Shown one piece after another: positions 26,902-61,102 of a DNA stretch of 61,102 bases (positions within the stretch are counted from its first letter, which is position 1; the number at the start of each line of letters is the position of its first letter). Under the pieces are notes generated by a model. It had not been told where the DNA came from. It saw nothing but the letters and a program-made list of their open reading frames with translations, and ran no database searches. Location of the stretch: contig CAZOQP010000002.1 in the NCBI GenBank assembly GCA_964582295.1, positions 148,268 through 209,369 on the forward strand. Direction: 5' to 3'. This stretch comes from an uncultured Candidatus Saccharibacteria bacterium. Its GTDB lineage: Bacteria > Patescibacteriota > Minisyncoccia > Phycocordibacterales > Zambryskibacteraceae. The position numbers were made by a program, and so were the translations under genes.

Positions 26902-27080
26902 TGGCGGGCGGTGGAGGAATCGGCGACAGCTCACTAATTCGCCCTGTCCATTTTGGCGGGGCTCATAAGTGGCTCCTGCCCGGGCTCGTCCCGCGTAGCG
27001 GGACTCCGCCTTTCGATTCCTCACCATCCTCGCAACGATGAACCGCTCAAATAGCCCCCGGCTATTCTCGCGGGTCATTG
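26902..27080 (-). mobile_element. tRNA-Trp 3'-anchored mini-element (176-bp repeat spacing)
   Basis: 19-bp direct repeat of the tRNA 3' end (26904-26922 vs 27080-27098) plus an inverted T-arm copy at 27012-27025. Confidence 0.55.
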
Positions 27081-27151
27081 CGGGCGGTGGAGGAATCGAA
27101 CCCCCGACAGCGGATTTGGAGGCCGCAGTTATACCATTTAACTAACCGCCC
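27081..27151 (-). tRNA. tRNA-Trp(CCA)
   Basis: GGGCGGT/ACCGCCC, GCGG-C-CTCCAAA-T-CCGC, GGTTCGATTCC. Confidence 0.93.
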
Positions 27152-27174
27152 AGTAAACGCGATTATAACAAATT

Positions 27175-27338
27175 CCGCTCGCCGTGCCTTTCGGCGTACA
27201 CGCATAAATTTGCCCAGCGGCAAATTTTGCTGTCTCTCAGCTCGCCAAAGTAAAGAGCCCCTCGTGATTACACTCGGGGTCATTGACTTACCTAGCTTTC
27301 TCGCTTCCGAGACGTACGGCGAAAGGCACGGCTCGCTA
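27175..27338 (-). repeat. GAGCGA-flanked palindromic element 1
   Basis: Arms GCCGTGCCTTTCGGCGTAC / GTACGGCGAAAGGCACGGC (1 mismatch); flanks TAGCGA and GAGCGG on the minus strand. Confidence 0.65.
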
Positions 27339-27349
27339 CAAAATCCTTA

Positions 27350-27473
27350 GAGCGAGGGGTGATGACGAAAAGAGGCAGTGCAGCGCGAGGGTGCCGTTGC
27401 TGAATGGTTGCATTCAGACGGTGAGCAAGCAGCAGATTTTTATGCGTACTCTTTTCGTCATCACCCCGAGCGA
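27350..27473 (+). repeat. GAGCGA-flanked palindromic element 2
   Basis: GAGCGA-GGGGTGATGACGAAAAGAG...CTCTTTTCGTCATCACCCC-GAGCGA; close copy at 56550. Confidence 0.85.
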
Positions 27474-27659
27474 CTTTTATTTCTTGGCTTCCTTGAAAAT
27501 CACCCTCTTTCGGAGCTTTTTGGAGTATTTTTTAAGCTCTATTTTGCGCTCTACTTTGCGCTTATTCTTGCGGGTGTAATACACCTCGCCCGTTTCCTTA
27601 TTGCGGAGAATTATAAGTTGGTCTTGTGACATGATGAGGGAAAGATACCACAGCTCTGT

Positions 27660-28802
27660 TTAATTGCAAACCGTCCGCCGAAGGTGGGGGGCTATATGGA
27701 CCAGTATCTCATGGGAGATAGTTTCTGAGAGTTTCGCCATTGATTCCACGGAGTTCTTATTCTCTCGGCATCGGCTTATGATGATTACCGAATCGCTAAT
27801 TTTGGCATCCGGAACTTCGCTAACATCGATTGAGGAAATATTCATGCTCACCCTGCCAATAATGGGACACATGATGCCTTTCAAAGAGACAAATCCCCTG
27901 TCTGACAGTCTCCGGTCAATACCCTCAAAATATCCCGCGGGAATGGTAGCAACGGACGTCTGCTTTTCTGTTTTGTAAGTGCAGTTATATCCCACGTGCT
28001 CTCCGGGAAGGATTGTTTTGACGGACGTAATGAGCGAGCGCATTTCAAGAACAGGTTTGAGAGGCAGATCTCCTGAGTGCTTGGACGAAATACCGTAAAG
28101 ACCAAGCCCTAGACGTGCGACATTGGTGCTTTCAGGCGCAAAACGCACTCCGGCTGTTGCCGAAATATGAAAAAACCGGATGTCCTCAAATTCCTTTTTA
28201 AAACATCTCACGGATTCTTCCCACTTCACTAATTGTTTATTTGTAAATGTATCTTTTTCACCATCTGCATCAGCAAAGTGAGAACATAAACCTTCAAGTG
28301 TTAATAAAGTCTGTCCTTTTATAATCTTGATTGCTTCGTTTATATCATTTTCGGAAATACCCTGCCGATGCATACCAGTATCTATTTTTAAGTGAACCAC
28401 CTTCGGACTTCTGGCAGTTTCAGCAAGACTCTTTAATTGTTCAATGCTTGTGATTGTAAATGACACATTAGAGAGAGACGACGAATTGATGTTTTCGGGG
28501 CTTGCATACCCAACGATAAGAATTTTTGATTTTATATCCTCACCACGCAGAAGCATTGCTTCATAAAGCGAATCAACTACGAAAAAAGGTACGTTTTCCC
28601 CATCAAGTACACGGGCAACAGGCACAAGCCCATGGCCGTAAGCATTACTCTTTAGGACTGGAGCAAAAGATATTTTTGGGTATGAAGATATGTACGTACA
28701 TAAATTATGAATGAGACTGTTTTTTGAAATAAAAATTTCAATAGAAGGACTATAGGGCGACAGAGACTTTTTGACAGTCCTTAACCACGAGAGAAATTTC
28801 AT
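27660..28802 (-). CDS. alr: Alanine racemase
   Basis: VLKSNAYGHG PLP lysine, HLKIDTGMHRQG, HVGYNCTY, GRVSMN. Confidence 0.95.
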   Translation of the reverse strand: MKFLSWLRTVKKSLSPYSPSIEIFISKNSLIHNLCTYISSYPKISFAPVLKSNAYGHGLVPVARVLDGENVPFFVVDSLYEAMLLRGEDIKSKILIVGYASPENINSSSLSNVSFTITSIEQLKSLAETARSPKVVHLKIDTGMHRQGISENDINEAIKIIKGQTLLTLEGLCSHFADADGEKDTFTNKQLVKWEESVRCFKKEFEDIRFFHISATAGVRFAPESTNVARLGLGLYGISSKHSGDLPLKPVLEMRSLITSVKTILPGEHVGYNCTYKTEKQTSVATIPAGYFEGIDRRLSDRGFVSLKGIMCPIIGRVSMNISSIDVSEVPDAKISDSVIIISRCRENKNSVESMAKLSETISHEILVHIAPHLRRTVCN

Positions 28803-28917
28803 ATTCTATGATTATATCAAGCAGATGAATATTCACGTAAGCTGACCATGTCTTAGGCTTGAAGCCCAACAAATTTGACGTATGATGGCCCTCGGCAACC
28901 TTTAATCAAGAGGCTAT

Positions 28918-29172
28918 ATGAGCAATCGCTCTGTTGGCAAAATGTCAGGCAAGGTATGGTTCAGAAGAGAAATTGCTGACCTGAAACGACGCCAAAAAAT
29001 AGACCCTCAAGAGTTCCGTGCACGAGTTCTTGTGGTTTACCAAGCTCTCCAGACAATTGTAAGTCCGGGGATGAAAATTAATCTGTCTAAAGGAGGCGAC
29101 GAGGTTTTGGATACCAAGATCAGAACATTGGTTCAATCTGTGAGCCCAGTTGATACAAAAGATGGAAAGTGA
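28918..29172 (+). CDS. Hypothetical protein (84 aa)
   Basis: ORF with AGAGG upstream, followed by palindrome TTTAGAGCGCTCATATGAGCGCTCTAAA (29178-29205). Confidence 0.55.
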   Translation: MSNRSVGKMSGKVWFRREIADLKRRQKIDPQEFRARVLVVYQALQTIVSPGMKINLSKGGDEVLDTKIRTLVQSVSPVDTKDGK

Positions 29173-29274
29173 AATATTTTAGAGCGCTCATATGAGCGCT
29201 CTAAACTTTTTAATATTGTTTTCCTTATAACAAATGAGGCCCGCCATGTTCTTTGGCGGGCCTCTTAGACGGTA

Positions 29275-29838
29275 CTATCGAAACAACGTAGCAATTTTCT
29301 TCCGCAAGTTTCTTTGTTGTGCAAGCCTCCAGCGGCGAAGTTTTTTCCATTCTACTTCCAAAAACTTGGGCGGCTCAGGAAGCGGACCATAGCCTTCAAG
29401 TTGGTCCTGCTGCTTCACGAACTCGCACATGCAATTGGGAACCGTGCGACCGTATCTGTCGCACAGACAAGGTCCATACTTAAGTGGCAGAAGTCGGAGC
29501 TCTCCCCGTCTGATTTTTTCCCGCTCCTCGAGCATCCGTCGATGCGATTCGATTGCCTTACTCTCAGTACATGCACAGAAACTGAGTTCGCGACCACAGC
29601 GACAAAACCTCGGCAATGGCGAAAGAAGCCTTGGATAGAAATCCGCACCGCCACCATAGACCCCGCGGATCTGCTCCCATCTGCCACCATTGTCTTCGTC
29701 GTAAGAAAGACCGATCTGCTTATCCTTGCAATACCACGGATCATGCAGGACTTTCGTCCCATCTTCGTTCAAAAGCTCTCGCCCGCAATTTTGGCAATAG
29801 GTTTTCTGAAATCGTTCAGCGAAATCCTTTCTAGCCAT
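29275..29838 (-). CDS. Cys-rich hypothetical protein, putative Zn-binding
   Basis: SD AGGAGG; CQNC, CRCG..CAC, CLCD..CMC clusters; own promoter TTGACA-N18-TAAGGT. Confidence 0.65.
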   Translation of the reverse strand: MARKDFAERFQKTYCQNCGRELLNEDGTKVLHDPWYCKDKQIGLSYDEDNGGRWEQIRGVYGGGADFYPRLLSPLPRFCRCGRELSFCACTESKAIESHRRMLEEREKIRRGELRLLPLKYGPCLCDRYGRTVPNCMCEFVKQQDQLEGYGPLPEPPKFLEVEWKKLRRWRLAQQRNLRKKIATLFR

Positions 29839-29948
29839 GTAGCAACCTCCTTTTTATTGAATTGACTGTTCTGGGCGCACCTTATCACATATTTAAAAAA
29901 CATGTCAATCTCATGTTTACACTGAACGATCTTTAGCGAGTCGAAGTG

Positions 29949-30030
29949 TGCGTCGGGAGGGACTCGAACCCACGATGCCCGAAGGCCGGAGATTTACAGT
30001 CTCCTGGAATAGCCGCTATCCGACCGACGC
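29949..30030 (-). tRNA. tRNA-Tyr(GTA)
   Basis: GCGTCGG/CCGACGC, GGAGA-CTGTAAA-TCTCC, long variable arm. Confidence 0.93.
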
Positions 30031-30083
30031 AGTGCTTCATAATCTAGCAGATTATGGTGTGATTTACGAGAGAAAGGGATTGA

Positions 30084-32792
30084 TTACTTCTGCGCCGATT
30101 CTTTAGGTTTGTCCGCTTTCTTTTTTGTTTCGGTGTTCGTCCACAGGCTTCCGCGGCGGCCTTTTTTGATATCAAAAATAAATTCGTCGTTCTTCACGTT
30201 CACTACCACTTCCCCGCCACGTGACAATCCTTTGGATATCATAAGAGACGCAATCGGTGTCAATATCTTGTTCTGAATAACACGCTTCAAAGGGCGCGCA
30301 CCGTATTGAGGACTGTATCCTTCTTTGGCTAAAAGCTCGTAAGCCGGCTCTGAAATAATAAGGGTCAATTCCCTATCTACTAGGCGCTTCTTCACTTGCT
30401 CCACCTGAATATCCACAATACTGCGGATGGCATCCTTCGAAAGAACATCAAAGAGAATGATGTCATCCAAGCGGTTCAGGAATTCGGGGCGGAAAAATTC
30501 CTTGAGACTTACCATCACTTTTTCCTTTGCAGATTCGTAATCTCCCCCGCCATCTCCCAAGTTGAAACCTACACGCTCCATTTTGTCTATGTATTGAGCA
30601 CCAATGTTTGAAGTAAGGATGATAAGGGTGTTCTTGAAGTTAACGGTGCGGCCTTTAGCATCCGTCAGGCGGCCGTTATCAAGCACTTGAAGCAAAATGT
30701 TGAATACCTCCGGGTGAGCTTTTTCTATTTCGTCAAAAAGAATAACAGCATACGGTCTGTGGCGCACCATCTCGGTAAGCTGGCCTCCTTCCTCGTGCCC
30801 CACGTAGCCGGGCGGCGAACCGATAAGCTTTGAAACAGAATGTTTTTCCATGAATTCAGACATATCCACGCGGATGAGAGCTTTCTCGTCGTCAAACAAA
30901 AATTCAGCAAGAGCTTTGGTGAGCTCTGTTTTTCCTACACCCGTCGGCCCGAGGAAAATAAATGAGCCGACGGGGCGGTTCGGATCAGAAATGCCCGCGC
31001 GTGAGCGCTTCACTGTGTCGGCAATTTTTTTCACCGCTTCGTCCTGGCCCACCACGCGTGCTTTCAGGAATTCTTCCATGCGGGAGAGGCGCTCGGCTTC
31101 CTGTTCAAGCATGCGGGTAACAGGAATACCCGTCCAACGCGAAACGATGTCTGCAATATCTTCTGCAGTTATCTCCTCGCGAAGCATTCTGCGCGAGCTT
31201 TGCATGCGCTTCAGACGCTTTGATTTCTGCTCAAGCTCCCGCTCCAAAAACGGTATCTCGCCGTAACGGATTTCCGCTGCCCGTGCAAGGTCTGCCCTAG
31301 CTTCCGCACCTTCCGCTTCCAGGCGAAGCTTTTCCAGGTTTTTCTTTATATCTTTGAGCCCCTCAACGGTCTGCTTCTCCCCCTTCCACTTCATTTCAAT
31401 GTCACGGGTCTTTTCCTTCAATGCCTGCACCTCTTCTTCTATGGTTTTTATGCGTGCTTTGGTTTTCGCATCTTTTGTGGTCTCTATTTCTTTTTTGAGC
31501 GCCTGCCTTTCTATCTCCAAACGGCGCACTTTGGTTGCTGTTTCCTCAAGAATAGGCGGCATATTTTCAAGAGAAATTTTCAAATGCGAAGCGGCTTCGT
31601 CTATGAGGTCAACCGCTTTGTCTGGCAAAAACCTGTCGGTAATGTAGCGAGATGAAAGATTAACTGCCGCCACTATAGCTTCGTCGGTTATACGCACCCC
31701 GTGATAAAGCTCGTATTTTTCCTTGAGCCCGCGAAGAACGGCGACAGCATCTTCAACTGTCGGCTCATTCACATGAACGGGCTGGAAACGTCTTGTTAAG
31801 GCCGGGTCTTTCTCAATATGTTTCTGATATTCCTTAAGTGTCGTGGCGCCAATTGCCCGCAATTCCCCGCGCGCAAGAGGCGGCTTCAGCATGTTTGAAG
31901 CATCCATGGCGCCTTCAGCCGCACCTGCTCCGACGATAGTGTGTATCTCGTCTATGAAAAGAATTATCTTTCCTTCGGAGCGCTCTATTTCTTTTATTAT
32001 ATTTTTCAGACGCTCTTCAAATTCACCGCGATATTTGGTTCCGGCGATAAGGAGACCGAGGTCAAGCGAGACTAGCTCTTTGTCTTTAAGCGACTCCGGC
32101 ACATTTCCCGATGACATACGCTGGGCGAGGCCTTCAACAATGGCGGTCTTTCCCACTCCGGCTTCTCCTATGAGTATCGGGTTGTTCTTTGTACGACGGG
32201 AAAGTATTTGTACGATGCGGGCTATTTCATTGTCTCGTCCGATGACCGGATCAAGCTTATTTTCACGTGCAAGCTTCGTAAGCGAGCGTGTGTATTTCAA
32301 AATAGATTTTGGTTTTTTCGGATCTTTCTCCCGTCCGTCCTTAGTGGTTTTCAATTCCTCAATGGTGCGCACTACCAGAGCTCTGTCCAGTTTGAAGCGT
32401 GCCAAAAGATCGCGTGCAGAACTAGGCACTTCAAGAATGGAAATGAACAAATGCTCAACAGAAACAAATTCGTCACCCAAAGATTTCGCCGCCTTGAGGC
32501 CGTTGTCTATTGTCTGAGCGAGCTCGGGGGTGAGATATATCTGATAAGAGGAAGAGAGGACAGAGGAGCTGTCGGAGCCTTCAAGAGACTCAAGTATGGA
32601 ATCCGTGAGGAGGATACTATCAACATCCAGGCGGTCAAGAATGAGCCCTACAGTGGACTCCTCCTGCAGAGTGAGCGCCGCCAAAAGGTGGAGAGGATTG
32701 ACATGATTCTGCCCACGCTCAATAGCAAGCTCATGAGCTCTTTTCAGGGCTTCCTTGGCTTTAGTTGTGAATTGATGGAATGGAGGAGGCAT
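30084..32792 (-). CDS. clpB: ATP-dependent chaperone ClpB
   Basis: Two AAA+ modules ([16 protein letters not shown]), coiled-coil M domain with AEIRYG, GARPLKR. Confidence 0.93.
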
Positions 32793-32848
32793 AACAGAAA
32801 AAATACATTCAAAGGAGGGTCAGGTCAAGCGATTTTTGGAAGTACTAC

Positions 32849-33628
32849 TTAACGAACGGCTTCCAGCAGAAGCGGGCTATAAATGAAGAAGCGCCCTGTT
32901 TCAAGATCTGAACGCCTGATGCCTACTATGTCGCCTGAAAGATCTATGAGGGGAGAACCGTTGGTGGCGCGGGTGCGGTCAAAATCCGTCTCTATTGTGC
33001 GCGGACTCGTGGAAGATGTCCCCTGAATATTGCTGATGTGCCCCACCAGCGCCACGTTGTCTATCTGCCCTTCAATAACGACAACCGTCTGCCCGAGTTT
33101 CGGAATGCTTTTTGTGAATGTGGCCGGGGTCACTCCGTTCACTGGAACAGAAGCTGCTCTGAAAAGAATGACGCCTGGTTCAGGTACATCTTTCTGTATA
33201 GCAAGATTCACAGTAGTGCCGTCTGCAAAGGTTCCGGTTGAAGCATATTGCGGAACGAAAAGCGGCGTGCGCTCCGCAATTATCTCGCCTTCTTGAGAAA
33301 TGACCACTCCGATTGCATAAAAAGTGGGAGAACCGTCGGGTCCGATCTGCCTGATACGCACAACCGAGCTCATATTTTTAGTAATAGCGGCCGTTACTTT
33401 GTCGTCTTCCGAGACCACCTGAACCTCTCTCACTGTGCGAGTGCCTTCCGGAGTGGTAACCACACGCTCAATGGTTCTCTCCACCACGCGGTTTATCGTC
33501 TGGCTCACAGTAGCAGGCGCTTCCTGTAAAAGAGAAACTGTCATAATGCCCGTCGCAATTGACGTGACGAAAGAAACAAGAAGAGTGAGGAGAACAAGCT
33601 GGGTCTTCGTAAGGTGCTCCATGTTCAT
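32849..33628 (-). CDS. Membrane-anchored trypsin-fold protein, catalytic triad apparently lost
   Basis: LTKTQLVLLTLLVSFVTSIATG anchor; trypsin-like layout with TNGSPLIDLSGDIVGI in place of GNSGGPL. Confidence 0.6.
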   Translation of the reverse strand: MNMEHLTKTQLVLLTLLVSFVTSIATGIMTVSLLQEAPATVSQTINRVVERTIERVVTTPEGTRTVREVQVVSEDDKVTAAITKNMSSVVRIRQIGPDGSPTFYAIGVVISQEGEIIAERTPLFVPQYASTGTFADGTTVNLAIQKDVPEPGVILFRAASVPVNGVTPATFTKSIPKLGQTVVVIEGQIDNVALVGHISNIQGTSSTSPRTIETDFDRTRATNGSPLIDLSGDIVGIRRSDLETGRFFIYSPLLLEAVR

Positions 33629-33645
33629 TTAATTATACATCACAC

Positions 33646-34863: not shown

Positions 34864-34959
34864 GGAAGTCATTGTGGCATTTTGGTGAAAATGAGGAAAA
34901 TTGCAAACGGGAAATAATAGTCATTTAATGTTAATATCACGAAACCGAAGTGAAAAAGC

Positions 34960-39150: not shown

Positions 39151-39231
39151 GGGCGGGTGGTGAAATGGTATACACGCTAGTTTTAGGAACTGGTCCCGCA
39201 AGGGGTGGAGGTTCAAGTCCTCTCCCGCCCA
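39151..39231 (+). tRNA. tRNA-Leu(TAG)
   Basis: GGGCGGG/CCCGCCC, CTAGT-TTTAGGA-ACTGG, long variable arm. Confidence 0.95.
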
Positions 39232-39391
39232 CAAATTTAACGAAGTGAAATTGTGCAGCGAGAAAGCAAACTGCTTTGCTTTCGTGAGAGGACTTGAAAA
39301 GGTTCTCCTAAATTTTTGAGTCTGCTATTGCGGATGAAAAAATAGGAAACCTGTACTGAAGCTGTAAGATTCAGGATCTCTCCCGCGCACA
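39232..39391 (+). mobile_element. tRNA-Leu 3'-anchored mini-element (158-bp repeat spacing)
   Basis: Inverted T-arm copy GAGAGGACTTGAA (39286-39298) and an 18/22 direct copy of the tRNA 3' end (39370-39391). Confidence 0.55.
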
Positions 39392-39468
39392 CTTGACTTT
39401 TATATGTATAGTATGATATAATAGTGGCAGAGCAGTACCTAACACACTACTCACACGAGGGTACTACA

Positions 39469-40482
39469 TTGTCTCCGTTTCTACTCCTGTCTCTGCTAAG
39501 CATAGTGGTCATTGTGACCCTCTGCTGGCTCATCCCTAACGCATTTGCGAATGAACACAAATTCTGGAATCGCGTCCATGAAAATGAGATTGTGTTCGTT
39601 AAGAAGGAAGGGAAAGTTGTCTTGGGCTTCTGCGGTGTCCCGGGAGTCCGATTCGCCGGAGCTATTCCCGGACACAGGCAGCCAAACAAACTGCTGAAAG
39701 GAGCGGATCCGTGCGGGTACTACGCGCTCGTCCCTGATTCCACACATCAAGGAGATCAGGGACTACACTGGATCGGAATTTTTCCAAGGTACCAGGTACA
39801 CAGTCATGTTTTTGCCTGGTCAAAGTTCGCTCAGGAAAAGGACAAGCCGGTTGAAGTAGTTGTCGCTCGGCAGGAAGAAGTTTTCTCGATGTACCATCGC
39901 TCTACATACGCGATTGTCGTCGAAGGCCGCACCAACGACAACATGCCCGGTCAGTCTATCCTCCAAGTGGAGATCGAGACCATTAGACCGTACGTCGCCC
40001 TCTTCGTAATACGTAAGTGGCTTGATGTGACAAAAATGTACATTGAGTCACGGGTCAACAAAGTCATCGGCAGGATAAACTTCGATGCAATCACGAGTGC
40101 ACGATGGAAGAGGACGTACGAACAAGAGCTCGTAAGCTCCATTCTCGCTCTCAATGACGACATCGGTTTTGACCCGAACAACGTGCGAACACTGATTGAT
40201 GAGGTCGGTGTGAGAATCCGCAACGTATCTTGGAGTCAGTTCGTTCCGACTCCGGGCCAGAAACTGGAGGAGATTTATCTTCTCGATGCCCGCGGGACTG
40301 CGGAGGCGAAAAACCTCAAGCGGCTCGTCAAGAGCGGTGGAGGAACACCTGAACAGGTGCTCGACTACCTGAAAAACAGGGAGTTGGCCGACGCACTCAA
40401 GAATACCAAAGCAAGTACCATTGTCGTCGGGAGTTCCGGCATCGGTGTAAATGTCGGCGGTGGAGGCAGCAAGAAGCCATAA
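39469..40482 (+). CDS. SPFH/Band-7-like membrane protein
   Basis: N-terminal TM, beta-rich insert, SPFH-like core (GVRIRNVSW), A..EA coiled tail; TTG start with GAGGG. Confidence 0.6.
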   Translation: MSPFLLLSLLSIVVIVTLCWLIPNAFANEHKFWNRVHENEIVFVKKEGKVVLGFCGVPGVRFAGAIPGHRQPNKLLKGADPCGYYALVPDSTHQGDQGLHWIGIFPRYQVHSHVFAWSKFAQEKDKPVEVVVARQEEVFSMYHRSTYAIVVEGRTNDNMPGQSILQVEIETIRPYVALFVIRKWLDVTKMYIESRVNKVIGRINFDAITSARWKRTYEQELVSSILALNDDIGFDPNNVRTLIDEVGVRIRNVSWSQFVPTPGQKLEEIYLLDARGTAEAKNLKRLVKSGGGTPEQVLDYLKNRELADALKNTKASTIVVGSSGIGVNVGGGGSKKP

Positions 40483-50991: not shown

Positions 50992-51075
50992 TAACTATTG
51001 ACTTTTTACTGTTGAGTATGATATAATATAGAAAGAACAAAGAAGTACCATACCAATTCCTTTCCGGAGGAAACC

Positions 51076-51561: not shown

Positions 51562-51565
51562 TAAC

Positions 51566-51609: not shown

Positions 51610-51615
51610 TTTCAA

Positions 51616-51960: not shown

Positions 51961-51969
51961 AATTATTTT

Positions 51970-52557: not shown

Positions 52558-52631
52558 AATGAGCCGATTTTATCACGAAAAAAGATGTAAAACTTGTTCT
52601 CTTGCAGATGCCGTACTACAATGCCTTACAA

Positions 52632-53252: not shown

Positions 53253-53264
53253 TATTCCGTTTTC

Positions 53265-54446: not shown

Positions 54447-54447
54447 T

Positions 54448-54486
54448 CCCCCAGGATAAACCTGAGTCCCAGGTTTATCCTGGGGG
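54448..54486. terminator. 17-bp hairpin (AGGATAAACCT family)
   Basis: CCCCCAGGATAAACCTG-AGTCC-CAGGTTTATCCTGGGGG. Confidence 0.75.
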
Positions 54487-54542
54487 TGGCTTACAGCTTA
54501 AAGCTTGAAGCTTACATCTTTGTGTGTTAAAGTCTTCCGGCA

Positions 54543-54791
54543 ATGAGTATTAATGTTGAAGTAACACGTGGATCAACCGAGAACAGTCTCTCGGTCCTTC
54601 GCCGTTTCACCAAAAGGGTGCAGGGTTCAGGCGTCCTCCCCCGCGTACGCAGCAAGCGCTATTCCGAGCGCAGTATCTCCGAGAATGTGAAGAAAAAGCG
54701 GGCTCTCAAGCGCTTGAAGAAGCGCGCCGTTATCACCCAGGCCCTCAAGATGGGCAAAACCATTGAGAAAGTCCGTGGCCGCAGGCGCTAA
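54543..54791 (+). CDS. rpsU: 30S ribosomal protein S21 (divergent)
   Basis: V.V...EN..S.LRRF.KRV..SG.L...R..RY..R pattern, highly basic. Confidence 0.75.
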   Translation: MSINVEVTRGSTENSLSVLRRFTKRVQGSGVLPRVRSKRYSERSISENVKKKRALKRLKKRAVITQALKMGKTIEKVRGRRR

Positions 54792-55233
54792 AAAAGTTTC
54801 AGTCTCTTTTGTGGCTTTAAGCGCCGCGCGCGGAATTCCGCGCGCGGCGCTTACGCGCGCAGCCCATTTAATACTCTCCTCCTCATACGAACTCTCTGTA
54901 GTTTTCACTAATTCCGCTCATTCACAGCAACTGAATAAAAAATTCCGCCGCAAAAATTATCCTGCGAATGTGCTTTCATTCCCCCTTTCATCATCTTCGG
55001 GAGAAATATTTTTGGACATCAAAAAAATATCAAAAGAAGCGAAAGATTTCGGCCTTTCCGGCAAAAATGCTGTCATTTATATGTTTATCCACGCACTCCT
55101 GCATTTGAAAGGCCGCAAACACGGCGCTACAATGGACGCTGAAGAAAGGCGCACTTTGGAGAAACTAAAAATCCCCATGCCTTTCCACTTGAACCAACAC
55201 ACACATGGCAAGAAACATCGCCGTCGGCATTGA
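54763..55233 (+). CDS. ybeY: rRNA maturation endoribonuclease YbeY
   Basis: LNKKFR.K..PANVLSF, GEIF, HALLHLKG..H; start uncertain (GTG 54811 plausible). Confidence 0.85.
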   Translation: MRKSVAAGAKKVSVSFVALSAARGIPRAALTRAAHLILSSSYELSVVFTNSAHSQQLNKKFRRKNYPANVLSFPLSSSSGEIFLDIKKISKEAKDFGLSGKNAVIYMFIHALLHLKGRKHGATMDAEERRTLEKLKIPMPFHLNQHTHGKKHRRRH

Positions 55234-56389
55234 TTTGGGCTCTAGCACTGTAAAGGTGGTGGTAGCTGAAAGGGGCAACTCCGCCCCGCGTATTCTTGCG
55301 ACAGGTGTGGCGGAATCAAAAGGCCTGCGGCATGGCTACGTGGTGAATTCTGCGGAAGCGGCGCGCGCGGTGAAAATGGCAAAAGAGATGGCGGAGAAAC
55401 AGTCCGGCATCCGCATAGAATCAGCCATTGTATCTGTGGGAGGTGTCGGCCTTTCAGGTATCACATCTTCAGGCACCGCAACCATCACAAGACAGGATGA
55501 CGAAATACACGAAGGAGATATTGAAGAAGCTCTGCGCGCCGCCGAAAATGCCATTCCTAAAAGCGAGATAAAGAACCGCCGCATCCTTTACAACATCCCA
55601 ACCGAATACATTATTGATAAAAAACCTGTTTTCGGAAAAGTGCTCGGCATGAGAGGTAGCGAACTGACAGTGAAAGCTCTTTTCATAACCTGTCTCGAAA
55701 GCCATGTGAAAGAACTAGTGGAAACACTTGCCGAAGCCGGCATTGAAACTTTGGATGTATGTGCTGCACCCATTGCCGCAAGCTTCGTAACACTTACCAA
55801 ATCCCAGAAGATCGCCGGCTGCATTTTGGTAAACATTGGCTCAGAAACCACATCTGTCGCCGTGTTTGAAAATAATCTTCCACTTTCTCTTGAAGTTTTT
55901 CCCATGGGCTCTGTTGATATCACACACGCCCTTGCTTTGGGTCTTAAAATATCTCTTGAAGAGGCCGAGATGGTGAAGCGCGGCGGCATTACGAACGATG
56001 ATTATCCGCGTCGGAAACTGGACGACATTATCACTTCGCGCATGGGAGATATTTTTGATCTCGTGGAAGCGCATCTCAAGAAAACAGGCCGTGCCGGCCT
56101 TTTACCTGCAGGTGTAGTGGTAGTCGGTGGTGGAGCAAACTTTGCAACAATTGAGGATTTTGCGCGCGCCGCTCTTCGCCTTCCATCGCGTATCGCACAT
56201 ATTGAACTTGGCCACCGGGATAGAACTATCCGTGATTCTTCGTGGGCTGTTGCTTATGGACTTTGCTATCTCGGACTTGAATCCGATGATGACTTTCCTC
56301 TTTCACTTGCTTCACTTTCAGGAATGCTTAAAAAGCGAGGAAAACTTGAAGCTATCGCCAAAAATTGGTTTTCTAAATTCATACCCTGA
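55205..56389 (+). CDS. ftsA: Cell division protein FtsA
   Basis: GIDLGSS, S.GLRHG.V, LVNIGSETT, VVVGGGANF. Confidence 0.93.
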   Translation: MARNIAVGIDLGSSTVKVVVAERGNSAPRILATGVAESKGLRHGYVVNSAEAARAVKMAKEMAEKQSGIRIESAIVSVGGVGLSGITSSGTATITRQDDEIHEGDIEEALRAAENAIPKSEIKNRRILYNIPTEYIIDKKPVFGKVLGMRGSELTVKALFITCLESHVKELVETLAEAGIETLDVCAAPIAASFVTLTKSQKIAGCILVNIGSETTSVAVFENNLPLSLEVFPMGSVDITHALALGLKISLEEAEMVKRGGITNDDYPRRKLDDIITSRMGDIFDLVEAHLKKTGRAGLLPAGVVVVGGGANFATIEDFARAALRLPSRIAHIELGHRDRTIRDSSWAVAYGLCYLGLESDDDFPLSLASLSGMLKKRGKLEAIAKNWFSKFIP

Positions 56390-56394
56390 AGACG

Positions 56395-56486
56395 TCACTC
56401 AGATAACACCCTTTTTCAAACAGTTGCCGCTTCGGTGTTTACGAAATCACCTCCCGCGTGTGTGAAAAAGGGTGTTATCTTCGCTC
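56395..56486 (-). repeat. GAGCGA-flanked palindromic element 4
   Basis: 18-bp arms AGATAACACCCTTTTTCA/TGAAAAAGGGTGTTATCT; minus-strand flanks GAGCGA and GAGTGA. Confidence 0.75.
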
Positions 56487-56509
56487 CTTAAGTATTAGAA
56501 CTTAACTTA

Positions 56510-56687
56510 AAGCGAGCAGTACGGAGTTTTTCAAACTAGAGTTAATTTAGAGCGAGGGGTGATGACGAAAAGAGGCTGTGCAGCGCGACGGCGCGAGGGT
56601 GAGCAAAAAATCAGCAGATTTTTATGCGTACTCTTTTCGTCATCACCCCGAGCGAATGCTGTTTGAAAAACTCCGTACTGCGAGCGA
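56510..56687 (+). repeat. GAGCGA-flanked palindromic element 5 (outer)
   Basis: AAGCGA-GCAGTACGGAGTTTTTCAAAC...GTTTGAAAAACTCCGTACTGC-GAGCGA, perfect 21-bp arms. Confidence 0.8.
56550..56655 (+). repeat. GAGCGA-flanked palindromic element 6 (nested in element 5)
   Basis: Same 19-bp arms and GCAGATTTTTATGCGTA core as 27350-27473. Confidence 0.85.
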
Positions 56688-56775
56688 AATTTACAGCACA
56701 AAAAAGGTAAAAATCAAGGAGTTGCGCGGTTTTTAGGTTTAAGTAGTATGGGCGGCAATTAATAAAGAAAATCAA

Positions 56776-57948
56776 ATGCCGCAAATCAAACCAGACGTGG
56801 AATCGTTCGCTCGCATTAAGGTCATCGGAGTAGGCGGATCAGGCCGAAATGCCTTGAACCATATGGTCAATTCCAAGGTGAAAGGGGTTGATTTCATAGC
56901 GGTTAATACGGACGCCCAGGACCTTCATCATTCAACTGCCAAGAAGAAGATACACATCGGCAAGAACCTCACCCGAGGCCTCGGCACCGGTATGGACCCA
57001 GAGCTCGGAAAAAGAGCGGTTGACGAAACCAAGGAGGAAATCCAGGAAGCCGTCAAAGGCGCGGATATGGTCTTCATCGCCTGCGGCATGGGCGGAGGCA
57101 CCGGAACCGGAGCGGCTCCCGCTATAGCTCGCACAGCTCGCGAGGCAGGATGCCTTACTGTAGGTGTAGTTACAAAGCCCTTCTCTTTTGAAGGTATCCA
57201 GAGAATGCGCATTGCCGAAGTCGGATTGGAAGAACTTCGCGATTCAGTGGACGCTCTCATAGTGATACCGAACGACCGTCTTCTCGCTGCAATAGATAAG
57301 GACACTACCGCTAAAAGCGCATTCGCAATGTGCGACGACATTTTGAAACAGGCCGTGGAAGGAATTTCAGATCTCATCACCACCCCCGGTATCATCAACA
57401 TTGACTTCGCGGATATCAAAGCCATCCTTGAAAGCGCAGGGCCGGCCCTTATGGGTATCGGGCATGCTTCAGGCGACAACCGTGCAGTGGATGCAGCGCG
57501 TCTCGCTATCAATTCCCCGCTTTTAGAGGTTTCCATTGCAGGAGCAAAGGGTGTCCTCTTCTCAATTTCAGGAAACGACGACCTCACTATGTTTGAGATA
57601 CAGGATGCGGCTAAGGTCATCACCGAGTCGGTTGACCCGAACGCCAAGATCATCTTCGGAACTGTGAAGGACGAGAAACTGAAGAAGAACGAATTGAAGA
57701 TAACCGTCATTGCTTCGGGTTTTCCTGAAGGTACGGTTCGCAAAGAGATAATGAGCACAGCCGCTGACCGTGGAAAAATATTCAACATCGTTGAAACTGT
57801 AAAGAACGATAGGAAAGAAGAGGAAAAGAAAAATAATAAAGAAGAAAAAGAAATGAAGACGGAGCCGGTTCCTCCAGTAAAGAAAGATGACGATGACGAC
57901 AGGTGGGATGCGGTACCTTCGTTTTTGAGACGTTCACGACTTAAATAG
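56776..57948 (+). CDS. ftsZ: Cell division protein FtsZ
   Basis: IKVIGVGGSG, GMGGGTGTG tubulin signature, NIDFAD, C-terminal VPSFLR. Confidence 0.98.
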   Translation: MPQIKPDVESFARIKVIGVGGSGRNALNHMVNSKVKGVDFIAVNTDAQDLHHSTAKKKIHIGKNLTRGLGTGMDPELGKRAVDETKEEIQEAVKGADMVFIACGMGGGTGTGAAPAIARTAREAGCLTVGVVTKPFSFEGIQRMRIAEVGLEELRDSVDALIVIPNDRLLAAIDKDTTAKSAFAMCDDILKQAVEGISDLITTPGIINIDFADIKAILESAGPALMGIGHASGDNRAVDAARLAINSPLLEVSIAGAKGVLFSISGNDDLTMFEIQDAAKVITESVDPNAKIIFGTVKDEKLKKNELKITVIASGFPEGTVRKEIMSTAADRGKIFNIVETVKNDRKEEEKKNNKEEKEMKTEPVPPVKKDDDDDRWDAVPSFLRRSRLK

Positions 57949-57965
57949 TTAAACCACCATAAAGT

Positions 57966-58005
57966 GTCCACAAAAAATAGCGATATATCGCTATTTTTTG
58001 TGGAC
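57966..58005. repeat. Loopless palindrome (CACAAAAAAT family)
   Basis: GTCCACAAAAAATAGCGATATATCGCTATTTTTTGTGGAC, perfect 40 bp. Confidence 0.8.
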
Positions 58006-58071
58006 TTGACTTTTGGGTCAAAAATATCGTATACTATTAGCAGAACCTCCCACATCAACCAGGAGAGTCCA

Positions 58072-58503
58072 GTGCAAAGCCTTTTGAGAATGACCACCCT
58101 GTTTATGGCCGTCCCAGCATTTACGTTCTGGGTCGCCTCGGCATTTCCGATTAAGGGTTCCCTTGTTGTCACCTTTACAGCGATTGCCGGTATCGTGACC
58201 CTGATCAAAGCTTTTCTATGGGCCAACGGGCGGGACCAGATACTTGAAGAGCTAATGGCGAGAGAACCACGTTATCTTCGTACCTGGATAATGGCTCTCC
58301 TCCTGACTCCTGTTGTGTGGAGCGTCCTCATGTTGGCGAGTGTTGTAGGGGTACTTCCATTTGGGGCAACGTATGTGGTGATCGGCATCGGAGTGGTAGT
58401 AGGCGCCCATCGCTTGTACATGGGAAGGCCCGGAATCGGAAGGACCCGCTTTCGCTCACGTTCACGTTCACAGCCGAAATTCCGGCACGGGATATCTGGC
58501 TGA
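58072..58503 (+). CDS. Small multi-TM membrane protein
   Basis: GTG 58072 with SD AGGAG; promoter TTGACT-N18-TATACT; 4 hydrophobic segments; 16-bp hairpin downstream. Confidence 0.65.
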   Translation: MQSLLRMTTLFMAVPAFTFWVASAFPIKGSLVVTFTAIAGIVTLIKAFLWANGRDQILEELMAREPRYLRTWIMALLLTPVVWSVLMLASVVGVLPFGATYVVIGIGVVVGAHRLYMGRPGIGRTRFRSRSRSQPKFRHGISG

Positions 58504-58595
58504 ACCATGAAGTATCACAATAGAGCCGTCGCGCAAAGCGCGACGGCTCTATTTCATTTTCCGTTTTTTATACTTTTCTGATACTCTTACTCGTT

Positions 58596-59531
58596 ATGGA
58601 ATATGAACTCGCGATCATAGGCGGAGGGCCGGCAGGAGTTTCCGCAGCCGTATATGCGGCCCGCAAAAAATTAAAGACTATTTTCATCACCGAATCATTC
58701 GGTGGGCAGAGCTATGATTCCGAGGATATACAGAACTGGATAGGAACACCACATATTTCAGGTCACGATCTTGCAGAAGCTTTTGAAAAACACGTGCGCG
58801 AATATGCTGGCGGAACGGTGGAGATCACTCTTGGAGAAAGAGTAACTTCAATAAAAAAAGAGGGTGGCATTTTTAAGATCACTGTAGGCGGCACTGTGCA
58901 CGAAGCTAAAACCATTCTTATATCAACCGGCTCCTCGCGCCGTAAATTGGATATACCGGGTGCTGCGGAATTTGAGAACAAAGGCATCACTTATTGCGCG
59001 TCCTGCGACGGGCCTGTGTTCGCCGGAAAAAATGTAGCCGTTATAGGAGGCGGCAATGCCGGATTTGAAACAGCCGCCCAGCTCCTGGCTTACTGCCCTT
59101 CCGTTACGCTTCTTCAACACGGAGAGCGTTTCAAAGCGGATGAAATGACAGTTGAAGCTGTTTTGAAACATCCAAACATGAAAACTGTTTTGAATGCCGA
59201 CCCGATTGAAATAAAAGGAGATAAATTCGTGAACACTCTCGTGTATCGAGACCCAACAGGCAATCACGAGCTGCCAGTTGAAGGAGTTTTTGTAGAAATA
59301 GGCCTTCTCCCCAACACGGAGATTGTGAACGGATTAGTTGATCGCGATACATACAACCGCATTAAAATAGACCCGCGTACCCAAAAAACTTCCCTACCTG
59401 GCATATGGGCAGCCGGAGACGTGAGCGATGTCATTTACCACCAGAACAACATTGCCTCTGGCGACGGTGTACGAGCTCTGGAAGATATTTATATACACAT
59501 CCGCGCAGGCGGCTCCCCAGACATGCGTTAA
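58596..59531 (+). CDS. trxB: Thioredoxin reductase-like FAD oxidoreductase
   Basis: IIGGGPAG, YCASCDG, VIGGGNAG, WAAGD. Confidence 0.9.
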   Translation: MEYELAIIGGGPAGVSAAVYAARKKLKTIFITESFGGQSYDSEDIQNWIGTPHISGHDLAEAFEKHVREYAGGTVEITLGERVTSIKKEGGIFKITVGGTVHEAKTILISTGSSRRKLDIPGAAEFENKGITYCASCDGPVFAGKNVAVIGGGNAGFETAAQLLAYCPSVTLLQHGERFKADEMTVEAVLKHPNMKTVLNADPIEIKGDKFVNTLVYRDPTGNHELPVEGVFVEIGLLPNTEIVNGLVDRDTYNRIKIDPRTQKTSLPGIWAAGDVSDVIYHQNNIASGDGVRALEDIYIHIRAGGSPDMR

Positions 59532-59575
59532 TTTTCTATTCTGATGTTCGTACGAACATCAGAATAGAAAATTAA
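59528..59575. repeat. Loopless palindrome, family B copy 2
   Basis: TTAATTTTCTATTCTGATGTTCGTACGAACATCAGAATAGAAAATTAA, perfect 48 bp. Confidence 0.85.
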
Positions 59576-59629
59576 TAAGAAAACGCGCGGCCAGGAAAAT
59601 CCTGTCCGCGCGTTGTTTTTCTCACTTAC

Positions 59630-60631
59630 TTACTGACCGAACCTTCGTATGAGGTAAGACATTGTGTCCCAACTCATGCCGTTTGGACTATTCACTGGCC
59701 CATCCGACTTCTTTCCGTCGTCGCCAATGCATATACCATTACAATCGTCGCTATTGGCCCAGATGATGGCCGCCCCGATCAGCAGAGCTCCAACTACTAT
59801 AGCCAACCCCGTACGATCTTTTTTTACCGTTGCATGGTTACTACGCTTCTTGGAGCTACCTGTGGAATGTTTAGCAGCACTGTCTTCCACCTCCTTTTTC
59901 ACCCCTGCCGCACCGCCGGACACTTTGATATTCAGTGAGTCCAGAAAGCGGTGAAGTACGACGAGCGAGTCCGTACGACCTGTCACAGGCACTTGGACCG
60001 TACGCGGAGCGTCAACAAGAACCTCGGAGGTCCTTACTGCAGCATCTCTTGCGAGAAGCTCAGTATTGTTGACAGCGTTCCCACAAAGGAGCGAGAGTAT
60101 ATTCAATCCGGAGTTATTCTCCCGGAGGAACATCTCTTTCTGGCGACAAGTGCGGCGATAATTCATTCCAACCTTCCGCGAGATCTCCATGATGTACGAC
60201 AGTTCCACAGGAGTACCTGCCGCACATTCCACTTCTTCAAGCGTCCCGAGCCATTTCGCAAATTCTGCGCATGAAGAGAACTTGAAATTAGAGCCCTCCA
60301 GCACAGCCCCCATGAACTGCTCGGGTGTGCCCCGGCGAACAGACCAATTCCGCTTGCAAACGTTTTCCACAAGATCGGTTTTGGAAACTTCGCGCGTAAA
60401 TATGGCACGCGCGCGATCCTGCAGGGAGTCGGTGGGAGATGTCTTCTTTGCTGTATCACTTCTGGCAGTGTCTGCCAGGCGCTGTACTGAATCGGTAACC
60501 ACTTTGCAGTTCCGACGCAGCTGGTCCATTGCGCTACATGGCCGCGTAGCGGGCGGGGTTTGGCTTTGGGCGGCTCCTGTAAAGACCAGTGCCAGCCCCA
60601 GAGCCGCAGAAACCAGGAAACTGAAACGCAC
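59630..60631 (-). CDS. Secreted Cys-containing protein with C-terminal TM anchor
   Basis: Signal peptide, about 10 Cys, C-terminal LAIVVGALLIGAAIIWA; SD AGGAG. Confidence 0.75.
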   Translation of the reverse strand: MRFSFLVSAALGLALVFTGAAQSQTPPATRPCSAMDQLRRNCKVVTDSVQRLADTARSDTAKKTSPTDSLQDRARAIFTREVSKTDLVENVCKRNWSVRRGTPEQFMGAVLEGSNFKFSSCAEFAKWLGTLEEVECAAGTPVELSYIMEISRKVGMNYRRTCRQKEMFLRENNSGLNILSLLCGNAVNNTELLARDAAVRTSEVLVDAPRTVQVPVTGRTDSLVVLHRFLDSLNIKVSGGAAGVKKEVEDSAAKHSTGSSKKRSNHATVKKDRTGLAIVVGALLIGAAIIWANSDDCNGICIGDDGKKSDGPVNSPNGMSWDTMSYLIRRFGQ

Positions 60632-60743
60632 TTTGAGCTCCTTTCAGATTGTGAGAAATTTTCAGATGTACTTCTATCCTTTTTGGATTCTATCACATAT
60701 GACGGAAAAGTAAAGATGAGCTTACATAAGCACTTTAAGCGAG

Positions 60744-60816
60744 TGCGCGGTAGAGGACTTGAACCTCTGGCCCTCTCAACGTCAATGAGATGCTCTACCA
60801 ACTGAGCTAACCGCGC
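60744..60816 (-). tRNA. tRNA-Val(GAC)
   Basis: GCGCGGT/ACCGCGC, TCTCA-TTGACGT-TGAGA. Confidence 0.95.
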
Positions 60817-60834
60817 GGCATTTTTATCACACGG

Positions 60835-60921
60835 CGGAGGGGAAGAGATTTGAACTCTTGATACCCTTTCGGGTATGCCGGTTTTCGAAACCGGTGCCTT
60901 CAACCACTCAGCCACCCCTCC
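60835..60921 (-). tRNA. tRNA-Ser(CGA)
   Basis: GGAGGGG/CCCCTCC, CCGGT-TTCGAAA-ACCGG, long variable arm. Confidence 0.95.
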
Positions 60922-60978
60922 AATATCGTCGCCAATCCTAGCATTTTGGCCCAAAAATGCTATATTTTGGCCTATTAA

Positions 60979-61050
60979 GGCCCTATCGTCTATCGGTTAG
61001 GACACGAGCTTTTCAAGCTCGGAAGCAGGGTTCGACTCCCTGTAGGGTCA
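60979..61050 (+). tRNA. tRNA-Glu(TTC)
   Basis: GGCCCTA/TAGGGTC, CGAGC-TTTTCAA-GCTCG. Confidence 0.95.
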
Positions 61051-61102
61051 CAAAACGCGAGTTCAAGAAAAGCGCACTGCTGCGCTTTTCTGCGTTTTGT
61101 GA
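61048..61102 (+). mobile_element. Start of a third tRNA 3'-anchored element (truncated by the window)
   Basis: TCACAAAACGC/GCGTTTTGTGA arms around GAAAAGCGCA-CTGC-TGCGCTTTTC; same CTGC-loop hairpin as after tRNA-Leu(TAG). Confidence 0.45.

Follow-up and report, generated by a model that had tools for sequence, protein, structure and literature searches.

Candidate RtT-like trailer modules behind tRNA genes of Patescibacteria

The window analyzed here is a stretch of 61,102 nucleotides (nt), the final 61 kb of contig C2 in the genome of an uncultured Candidatus Saccharibacteria bacterium (568 kb, 7 contigs, 44 tRNAs), and it contains 11 tRNA genes according to ARAGORN. Behind the tRNA-Trp(CCA) and tRNA-Leu(TAG) genes of the window, and behind a tRNA-Ser(GCT) gene elsewhere in the genome, stand elements of 150 to 210 bases without genes, in which an antisense copy and a direct copy of the tRNA tail enclose a core. 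We propose, with moderate confidence, that the three are members of a large, uncatalogued family of tRNA-trailer modules of Patescibacteria that resembles the RtT RNA of Escherichia coli in design, and that these are trailer RNAs spreading or turning over by recombination through their tRNA-derived arms. A literature search for structured tRNA trailers in Patescibacteria gave no account of such a family. An initial annotation, made from the letters of the window, had described sequence folding back on the tRNA 3' end behind three genes (Trp, Leu-TAG, and Glu) and had suggested either gene-less integrative elements or RNA switches acting on pre-tRNA maturation.

Elements of the window and its genome

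In what follows, X1 is the tail of the tRNA gene, A' the antisense arm, and X2 the distal direct copy of the tail. The last 28 nt of all 44 tRNAs were compared with the 300 nt downstream of each gene, and the best ungapped match was taken. With 42 of the tRNAs entered in the statistics, background best scores were 4 to 8, and only Trp, Leu-TAG, and Ser-GCT scored above 10 in both orientations; the other eight tRNAs of the window, where the initial annotation had seen no element, lay at background level. In 1,050 shuffles, the probability of a score of at least 10 was 0.005 for a direct and 0.006 for an inverted match. Because the probability is ∼0.005 in either orientation, the joint chance of both arms is ∼3e-5 per tRNA, and the elements exceed shuffled controls.

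The Trp element lies on the minus strand and has these parts (R1, and R2 below, are covariance models introduced in the next section):

27080..27151, minus strand: tRNA-Trp(CCA) gene (ARAGORN; Rfam tRNA, 59.4 bits; repeat), with X1 as its final 19 nt, 27098-27080 (C56 to C74)
27038..27078, minus strand: spacer hairpin HP1a (AATGAcccgCGAG...GAGcggttCAT) (inverted repeat, fold, alignment of relatives)
27012..27033, minus strand: antisense arm A' (gcgaggatggtGAGGAATCGAA) (inverted repeat)
26923..27011, minus strand: type-1 conserved core, consisting of GAAAGGCGGAG, a variable hairpin, CGAGCCCGGGCAGGAGCCAC, a hairpin with tandem G·A, and GTGAGCTGTCGC (model R1, consensus fold, covariation)
26902..26922, minus strand: X2, identical at 19/19 positions and followed by CA, to read ...G-CCA; closes the core with A' (helix P0) (repeat, fold)
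26859..26895, minus strand: hairpin past X2 (AACACGTCAC/GTGACGTGTT) (inverted repeat)

The 19-nt tail GCGGGCGGTGGAGGAATCG at 27080-27098 recurs without a mismatch at 26904-26922, which reproduces the reported repeat spacing of 176 bp. This X2 is specific for its tRNA, matching its own tail over 19 positions and any other tail over at most 9. The initial annotation had also described an inverted copy of the T-arm and 3' strand. In the Trp element, this copy is exact over 11 nt only (27012-27022 against 27090-27100, T54-C64), a near-universal stretch of T-loop and T-stem, and the remainder of A' (27023-27033) complements the acceptor 3' strand through wobbles and bulges only. HP1a is conserved 3' of tRNA-Trp, -Ser, and -Val in relatives. 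The hairpin past X2 is possibly the original trailer hairpin of the tRNA-Trp gene; it was not called a terminator in the terminator scan.

The Leu element lies on the plus strand:

39151..39232, plus strand: tRNA-Leu(TAG) gene (ARAGORN, Rfam), with X1 as the tail 39209-39233
39262..39283, plus strand: hairpin HP1b with a CTGC loop (GAAAGCAAA-CTGC-TTTGCTTTC) (fold, relatives)
39283..39298, plus strand: antisense arm A' (CGTGAGAGGACTTGAA) (inverted repeat)
39299..39366, plus strand: type-3 conserved core (AAGGTTCTCCTAAATTTTTGAG...AATAGGAAACCTGTACTG..CTGTAAG) (model R2, family search, covariation)
39367..39391, plus strand: decayed X2, 20/25 (80%) identical to the Leu-TAG tail, at a spacing of 158 (direct repeat)

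Both the 158-bp spacing and the inverted copy were as initially described, A' being complementary to 39212-39227 over 16 nt at 94% (15/16). The module AGCAAGCAAACTGCTTTGCTTGCG, equal to HP1b, stands before A' in many relatives; as a dispersed repeat within the genome, a strict pattern of the CTGC-loop hairpin, which does not match the Glu hairpin discussed below, found the Leu copy only. The initial annotation had held that each arm is customized to its host. For the direct copy, this was borne out in the Trp and Ser elements and failed in the Leu element: over 13 nt, the acceptor part CTCTCCCGCGCAC of that copy is the same as the tRNA-Leu(GAG) tail (contig C1), against 10 for the Leu-TAG tail. 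The match hints that the copy preserves a former state of the gene or that sequence has passed between Leu loci; tRNA-Leu(GAG) itself has no tail copy within 6.5 kb. A near-consensus promoter-like site (39393-39422; TTGACT, 18 nt, TG-TATAAT; 11/12) lies 2 nt past the decayed X2, upstream of an open reading frame (ORF) at 39424-40482.

The third complete element of the genome follows tRNA-Ser(GCT) (C1:35250-35339), outside the window. It has an inverted match of 18 nt at +42 and a direct match of 15 nt at +196, and the direct copy is tRNA specific.

A family with several core types

The Trp gene with its element was compared with 60 relatives by BLAST, and the interior recurred at many sites other than tRNA-Trp. 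At 18 of 20 fetched sites, the match stood ∼50 to 200 nt behind a tRNA of another specificity, on the tRNA strand; fetched loci without a tRNA call were L042, which has a 3' end resembling that of transfer-messenger RNA (tmRNA), and L050 (L numbers denote fetched loci, G000 the genome of the window, and other G numbers relatives). In 19 aligned instances, X1 was followed by a spacer hairpin, by A' ending in ..GGAATCGAA, by a conserved core, and by an exact X2 from C56 to C74. The spacer hairpin had either the conserved form AATGA..CGAG..GAG..CAT or a terminator-like form, sometimes with a second hairpin AGCAAGCAAA-CTGC-TTTGCTTGCG. The modules are gene-less, 130 to 210 bp long, and located directly 3' of the gene on the tRNA strand.

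Four core types were distinguished. Type 1 (..CGAGCCCGGGCAGGAGCCAC..GTGAGCTGACGC) is that of the Trp element, type 2 (..GAGGCGGGGTCG..GTGAC) is shorter, type 3 (..GGTTCTCC..GGAAACCTGTACTG..CTGTAAG) is that of the Leu element, and the fourth is shared by the Ser-GCT element and one tRNA-Tyr element of a relative, so that the three complete elements of the genome have three different cores. Model R1, a covariance model made from 11 type-1 cores, detects types 1 and 2 and matches the Trp element at 26915-27023 with 100.1 bits; R2, the model for type 3, matches the Leu element at 39283-39383 with 82.3 bits. In the window, Rfam 15 at gathering score gave tRNAs only and no other family.

R1 matched 44 of the 86 genomes of the same GTDB family, in 16 of 17 genera and with up to 11 copies per genome, and R2 matched 38 of the 86, with up to 19 copies. 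Across the phylum, R1 matched 10 of 301 sampled genomes. A strict type-1 pattern occurred at 35 loci in species representatives of all prokaryotes, and all 35 were Patescibacteria (Kaiser-, Campbell-, Yonath-, and Vogelbacteria, Spechtbacterales, Minisyncoccia, and others). Upstream of 81 of the 96 aligned R1 matches there is a same-strand tRNA, within 100 nt in 76 of the 81; the other 15 are mostly cut by contig ends or are second units. The hosts in this alignment comprise 18 amino acid specificities and the tmRNA-like 3' end of L042, and further searches added tail copies behind Ile and Phe tRNAs. The family of gene-less modules anchored at tRNA 3' ends that the initial annotation had suspected is real.

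At L042 (G001:C17, ∼2700-3050), a type-1 module stands behind the tRNA-like 3' end GGCGGTTCAATTCCGCCCATCTCCAC, which ARAGORN called neither tRNA nor tmRNA; the host gene is probably a divergent tmRNA gene. There, a CTGC-type hairpin interrupts A', which is separated from the gene by a terminator. Many copies are found within ∼300 bp of contig ends (G006:C17:12-112, G008:C17:112-193, G101:C3:43-126, and the end of G014:C7), and the modules seem to break short-read assemblies at tRNA loci.

Two further tRNA genes of the genome have repeats or hairpins at their 3' ends. At the end of the window lie the following:

60979..61051, plus strand: tRNA-Glu(TTC) gene (ARAGORN, Rfam)
61048..61102, plus strand: nested terminator-like hairpin with a CTGC loop, beginning in the last 4 nt of tRNA-Glu (inverted repeat)

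The CTGC-loop hairpin that the initial annotation saw behind both Leu and Glu is present. The fold-back it described for three tRNAs stood for Trp and Leu-TAG; behind tRNA-Glu, the 51 nt to the contig end (61052-61102) are taken up solely by the terminator-like hairpin, and no inverted T-arm copy is visible in them. The hairpin is perhaps the opening part of an element that the end of the contig truncates. Relatives have full elements behind tRNA-Glu that open with a terminator-like hairpin, and no remaining part was found among the contig ends of the assembly. Behind tRNA-Ile(GAT) (C4:411-485, adjoining the 16S end, outside the window), a 25-nt direct tail copy begins at +52, with two small hairpins and no antisense arm between the copies; the distal copy reads CCA, and the gene does not. 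This tail duplication may be a minimal relative of the modules.

Fold, turnover, and possible origins

The consensus fold consists of P0 (A' paired with X2), a GAAA linker, P1, a variable hairpin P2, a helix P3 in which C56 of X2 belongs to the last pair, and P4 with an apical hairpin. In the R1 alignment (96 sequences), 96.6% of the cells were paired and 560 cells were changed on both sides; 0 of 500 column shuffles scored as high, and a slid partner gave 25 to 45% pairing. For type 3, 87.6% of the cells were paired, with 115 double-changed cells and again 0 of 500 shuffles as high. Both alignments were fitted to their own covariance models, which favors structure somewhat in these figures. 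In the core helices of the R1 alignment, G·U pairs outnumbered A·C pairs 56 to 8, and the core therefore folds as the tRNA-sense strand, be it as RNA or as sense single-stranded DNA. P0, the internal control in the same alignment, had 20 G·U and 21 A·C and looks like a drifting copy. The sense-strand fold suits the pre-tRNA switch of the initial annotation at least as well as a DNA site.

A' is bipartite. Its perfect complement peaks sharply at 10 to 11 nt (T54 to ∼C63) and breaks at the junction of T-stem and acceptor, where some copies carry a CTGC hairpin; a looser complement of the acceptor strand follows. A' and X2 form a closing helix that imitates the T-stem of the host tRNA stacked on its acceptor stem, with the discriminator base of that tRNA at the end. 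For the whole precursor, two mutually exclusive pairings are predicted, A' with X1 or A' with X2. The predicted fold that builds X2 into the tRNA in place of X1 and leaves X1 to pair with A' is 5 to 13 kcal/mol lower for all three elements, and a switch or a competition between the two tails is therefore possible; A' may keep the spare tail harmless.

These structural data bear on the explanation that the modules are decayed attL/attR scars of ordinary integrase-bearing islands or prophages. Islands are classically recognized by direct repeats that extend from the T-loop to the end of the tRNA, and versions with cargo exist. However, a random scar would yield neither the same architecture of 130 to 210 bp in more than 200 copies nor conserved cores with compensatory changes, and no integrase remnant was seen at any locus and no viral counterpart was found. 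We regard this explanation, which the covariation data bring close to refuted, as scarcely tenable.

The arms follow the host tRNA. X2 was identical to the tRNA tail at 18 of 19 positions or more in 56 elements, and a comparison of Trp elements from several genera shows X2 and A' changing along with the tRNA, as the initial annotation had proposed. The three bases from position 74 after X1 were CAA in 41 of the 56 elements and CCA in none, whereas CCA followed X2 in 13 of the same elements; ∼12 of the 44 tRNA genes of the genome encode CCA. The Trp element illustrates this asymmetry, with G-CAA at the gene end and G-CCA at the distal copy. Because of the 0/56 against 13/56, X2 and its flank look like the displaced original end of the gene, and X1 would be a replacement brought by the element.

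At the DNA level, the modules differ even between close relatives. Within genus g1, tRNA-Trp has a type-1 element in G000, none in G001, and type 3 in G002 and G004, and tRNA-Tyr has none in G000, type 2 in G002, and type 3 in G004. Two metagenome contigs carry an identical 3' half of tRNA-Trp without the element, in nonhomologous flanks. Units also stack, as two 100% identical tandem 158-bp units behind tRNA-Lys (L045) or as a type-3 unit with a type-2 unit (L070). Cargo of 1 to 3 kb lies between tail copies at L031, L121, L123, and L142. At L031 (G009:C3, 3350-5620), two type-1 modules, 99% identical to each other, stand behind tRNA-Asp and flank ∼1.8 kb with three genes (an unknown protein of 233 amino acids, a YdjM-like protein, and a SET-domain protein) and without a recombinase. 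Other cargo includes an NYN fragment and, by motif inspection at L123 (∼1120-3250) and L142 (∼1660-4950), an inositol-monophosphatase (IMPase)-like protein occurring together with a 2H/LigT-like phosphoesterase (two HxTx motifs), and a protein with a C-terminal HNH motif; this cargo, too, showed no recombinase. For 43 cores whose nearest neighbor is at least 80% identical, that neighbor stands at the tRNA of another amino acid in 34 cases and in another genus in 33; one tRNA-Tyr core of genus g1 and one tRNA-Val core of genus g10 are 94% identical, and the Trp elements of two species in one genus are 74% identical. Since types differ or are absent at the same tRNA, stack, bracket cargo, and have cores that ignore host tRNA and genus, the DNA turnover (gain, loss, swap, tandem stacking, and cargo bracketing) is real.

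Fold and turnover point in different directions for a nonmobile RNA with a host function, that is, a trailer or small RNA that would aid or regulate the maturation, quality control, or protection of its own tRNA. It would act as an A'-X1/A'-X2 switch or a decoy tRNA arm, with X2 kept by concerted evolution and A' by compensatory selection. The strong covariation and the sense-strand bias favor it, as do the constant bipartite A' with its break at the T-stem/acceptor junction, the A' of Trp elements that differs between genera together with the tRNA, the prediction of two near-isoenergetic global folds, and the precedent of E. coli RtT, which a preprint discussed below, citing earlier work, describes as a processed RNA of the tyrT transcript. 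The distribution fits it poorly: the modules are patchy, absent from about half of the family genomes and ranging from 0 to >19 copies per genome; sister species differ in the tRNAs that bear them, and members of one genus may have another type, or none, at a given tRNA; and an identical tRNA-Trp exists without one. Heterogeneous stacked units, bracketed cargo, decayed X2 copies such as that of Leu-TAG, and core similarity independent of host tRNA and genus also argue against it. We therefore consider a purely host-functional RNA unlikely.

Mobility would raise the question of an enzyme. The initial annotation had noted no recombinase nearby, correctly, and had considered a tyrosine recombinase as the partner, for which no support was found. 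The genome has one tyrosine recombinase (PF00589), an Xer-like protein of 320 amino acids; nearly all 86 family genomes have exactly one Xer-like protein, including those with 13 to 15 elements, and a phmmer search with the 320-amino-acid protein found no tyrosine recombinase homologue among 1,093 ORFs of ∼120 element loci. A dedicated tyrosine integrase was rejected on these grounds. A phage origin was likewise rejected, since two core patterns gave no copy in 2.9 million viral contigs. No protein-bearing relative of a module was found at the loci, where no systematic search for transposase families was made. In a comparison with miniature inverted-repeat transposable elements, A' and X2 form inverted termini of 7 to 21 bp around the core, and the flanks extend the inverted repeat and show no direct duplication.

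These searches, together with the layout, decide how far the modules can be taken for nonautonomous integrative mini-elements. In such a model, a single-stranded circle would fold X and A' into a forked hairpin that mimics the T-arm/acceptor site of the tRNA, and the Xer-like or an unknown host recombinase would insert it by exchanging one strand at a set phosphodiester (55|56 in types 1 and 2). The order X - spacer hairpin - inverted X - body - X is exactly as predicted, and it is, as the initial annotation saw, what CTXphi-type folded-strand integration would leave. Within a core type, X2 always starts at the same, sharply defined position, the flank of X2 resembles a displaced gene end, the sense-strand fold is compatible with single-stranded DNA, tandem arrays and cargo versions recall CTX arrays and cassettes, and an Xer-like enzyme is available in every genome. 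Against this, element-rich genomes have no extra tyrosine recombinase and the ∼120 loci have none, there are no viral copies, and the boundary varies by core type (55|56 in types 1 and 2, ∼52/53 in type 3, and 57/58 in E. coli RtT), which would suit a boundary set by the fold and not by one enzyme. The bases left of the presumed crossover in the free element (..GACGC against AA-AGG) would not pair, and the T-arm offers arms of only 5 bp, whereas known Xer half-sites have 11 bp; the elaborate conserved core would be unnecessary for an att site. On balance, we judge this model unlikely.

Reverse transcriptase was rejected as a partner as well: PF00078 occurs in 44 of the 86 genomes, but it is missing from G009, G014, G007, G008, G021, G027, and G034, which rank near the top in element number. 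The reverse transcriptases of the family have ∼340 amino acids and are presumably of the diversity-generating retroelement type, a common one in this phylum. Two genes for such enzymes of ∼343 amino acids are present in the genome of the window (C2:119109-119720 and C1:61594-62205), and across the family they show no association with the modules. This weighs on the explanation by an RNA-mediated selfish element, a "T-loop pseudo-intron" or a tRNA-primed retroelement, whose RNA would pair through A', be joined into the T-loop by self-catalysis or RNA repair, and be copied back with its arms retemplated. Such an element would explain both the customized arms and the near-identical cores behind unrelated tRNAs of different genera; the predicted alternative fold amounts to a whole module inserted in the T-loop, and the junction is conserved, with invariant unpaired bases. 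Apart from the reverse transcriptase, absent where elements abound and present in many genomes with few or none, a perfect A' run of 10 to 11 nt in most copies is not the full length that fresh templating would give. A search of the Trp element region (26850-27160) against Rfam at E ≤ 10 returned tRNAs only, with no ribozyme and no intron family. A hammerhead-like three-way junction was rejected by eye; GAAA is present, but CUGAUGA and the A15.1-U16.1 pair are not. We hold RNA-mediated propagation to be very doubtful.

The reading that we prefer, and to which we give about the same weight as to all doubts about it, is that of a trailer RNA resembling RtT, encoded by a module whose tRNA-derived arms serve the recombination by which it spreads or turns over. 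The module would be read through from the tRNA promoter. The tRNA would fold first, and A' would then pair with X2 and neutralize the redundant tail, giving a compact mimic of a tRNA arm that tRNA-processing enzymes could excise, as for E. coli RtT. Spread and turnover would need no dedicated enzyme if they proceeded by homologous recombination or gene conversion, for example, after DNA uptake, with the conserved tRNA gene as the homology arm on one side and X2 on the other. Recombination through these arms would lead X2 to stay identical to the tRNA while A' drifts and is compensated, and it would produce arrays, cargo, and a preference for the most conserved genes.

Several points weigh against this proposal. 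Transcription and processing of the modules are steps that we infer from sequence, and several relatives, as well as the tmRNA-like gene, have a terminator-like hairpin and its T run downstream of the gene and ahead of A', which would limit read-through. P0 is without G·U bias (20:21), so that the A'-X2 pairing may lack selection at the RNA level, and the G·U/G·T bias of the core is equally compatible with folded sense-strand DNA. RNase Z avoids CCA-bearing precursors, and the CCA asymmetry could instead reflect a processing constraint of this type; it also holds for types 1 and 2 only and is reversed in a type-3 element at the tRNA-Tyr of G004. An arm of 19 nt is short for RecA-type recombination, and recombination through the arms leaves retargeting, the rewriting of the arms at a new tRNA, unexplained. 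Nearest-neighbor comparisons are noisy with cores so short and constrained. At orthologous loci, where the initial annotation expected mobile elements to show presence and absence, one genus can indeed show different types, or no element, at a given tRNA, but neither the metagenome scan nor the Trp loci of four species gave a precise filled/empty pair with homologous flanks; the Trp loci of the four species are too diverged downstream to be aligned.

Retargeting would be accounted for by a protein-less, self-targeting mobile element, in which the folded nucleic acid itself, by means of an antisense arm spanning the insertion point and a conserved junction core, directs insertion into the T-loop of a tRNA or tmRNA gene and rewrites both arms to suit the new host, with housekeeping enzymes alone or by its own catalysis, and of which E. 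coli RtT would be a domesticated or fossil relative in principle. We mention this as a speculation that is quite improbable.

If the modules are RNAs, they would make up a new class of tRNA-arm mimics, each tied to a single tRNA, in organisms with a minimal RNA-processing machinery. If they are mobile, they would be gene-less elements that land in the most conserved genes of a cell and leave them intact, and they would show how small cargo islands arise at tRNA genes without integrases. With hundreds of copies, several core types, and rich covariation, comparison is now possible, and the presently unannotated modules merit Rfam-type models.

Comparison with known systems

Williams reportedly described, in 2002, the islands and prophages that tyrosine integrases place in tRNA and tmRNA genes, with the T-loop as one sublocation. 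Like them, the modules have a direct repeat from the T-loop to the tRNA 3' end and tRNA or tmRNA-like targets; the gene is made whole again by the proximal copy, the distal one resembles the displaced end, and some copies bracket cargo. Unlike them, the modules are gene-less and only 130 to 210 bp long, have no integrase in the element or locus in a genome with a single Xer-like protein, and contain an internal antisense arm and a conserved folded core, which islands lack.

In integrative mobile elements exploiting Xer (IMEX) of the CTXphi type, a folded (+) single-stranded attP is recombined by XerCD at dif. The modules share with these the two inverted site copies, the spacer of a few tens of bases, the forked hairpin mimicking a duplex target (X1 and A' with the spacer hairpin can fold into such a structure), the one inverted copy that stays internal near one end, and the tandem arrays. 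They differ in that the target is a T-loop and tRNA tail and not dif (all module sites are ends of tRNA or tmRNA-like genes, and none is dif), that there is no phage genome, and that the fold of the body, and not only of the site, is conserved. Integron cassettes and attC sites are alike in being gene-less or single-gene units stacked head to tail and in their strand-specific fold, and in both, the recombination site would be set by the fold of a single strand rather than by sequence. In contrast to integrons, no IntI-type protein was among the tyrosine recombinase matches (an attI/Pc platform was not searched for), the arms copy the host tRNA, and the cores are conserved in sequence.

tRNA-like structures include the tRNA-like domain of tmRNA, those of plant viruses, and mascRNA, besides minihelices of acceptor and T-arm. 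The A'-X2 helix resembles such minihelices in its stacked T-stem and acceptor stem and its discriminator base, followed by CCA in 13 of 56 elements, and by this analogy it could be a substrate for RNase P, RNase Z, or the CCA-adding enzyme. It differs from tRNA-like structures in that a large junction replaces the T-loop, the D and anticodon arms are missing, and the mimic is specific to the neighboring tRNA.

RtT RNA has been known since the early descriptions of the tyrT locus. The E. coli tyrV gene is followed by three units of 178 bp, each of which contains the tRNA-Tyr tail twice, inverted at +59 and as a 19-nt direct copy that closes the unit, and the outer helix of the Rfam RtT model (RF00391) is the pairing of these two copies. 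RtT (rttR) and the modules alike stand directly 3' of a tRNA gene on the same strand, end in a 19-nt direct tail copy that pairs with an upstream inverted copy as the outermost helix, have a GC-rich interior of several helices, and form tandem arrays (178 bp against 158 to 211 bp for the modules). They share no homology in sequence or structure: RF00391 (gathering score, 45 bits) had no match in the window, nor at E ≤ 10 over 26850-27160, and R1 gave nothing significant at the E. coli rttR locus (best score, 4.7 bits; E = 1). At the E. coli locus examined, RtT follows tRNA-Tyr and has a direct copy running from position 58 through CCA, whereas the modules of Patescibacteria have several core types, at least 18 tRNA specificities plus a tmRNA-like gene, and a presence that varies between close relatives. 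A 2024 preprint, citing earlier work, has RtT as a processed RNA of the tyrT transcript; the preprint calls the mode of action of rtT unknown and reports raised coverage of tyrT-rttR in exonuclease-resistant "mobilome" DNA under stress (doi 10.1101/2024.07.17.603846). Judged by sequence and layout, RtT is the only described look-alike found, of the same design and not homologous; the initial annotation professed to know of no described family with such a layout, and the 178-bp tyrT repeats supply one. The odd design of RtT, in which a copy of the tail and its antisense partner clasp a folded interior, is shown here to be a general and recurrent solution in a whole phylum.

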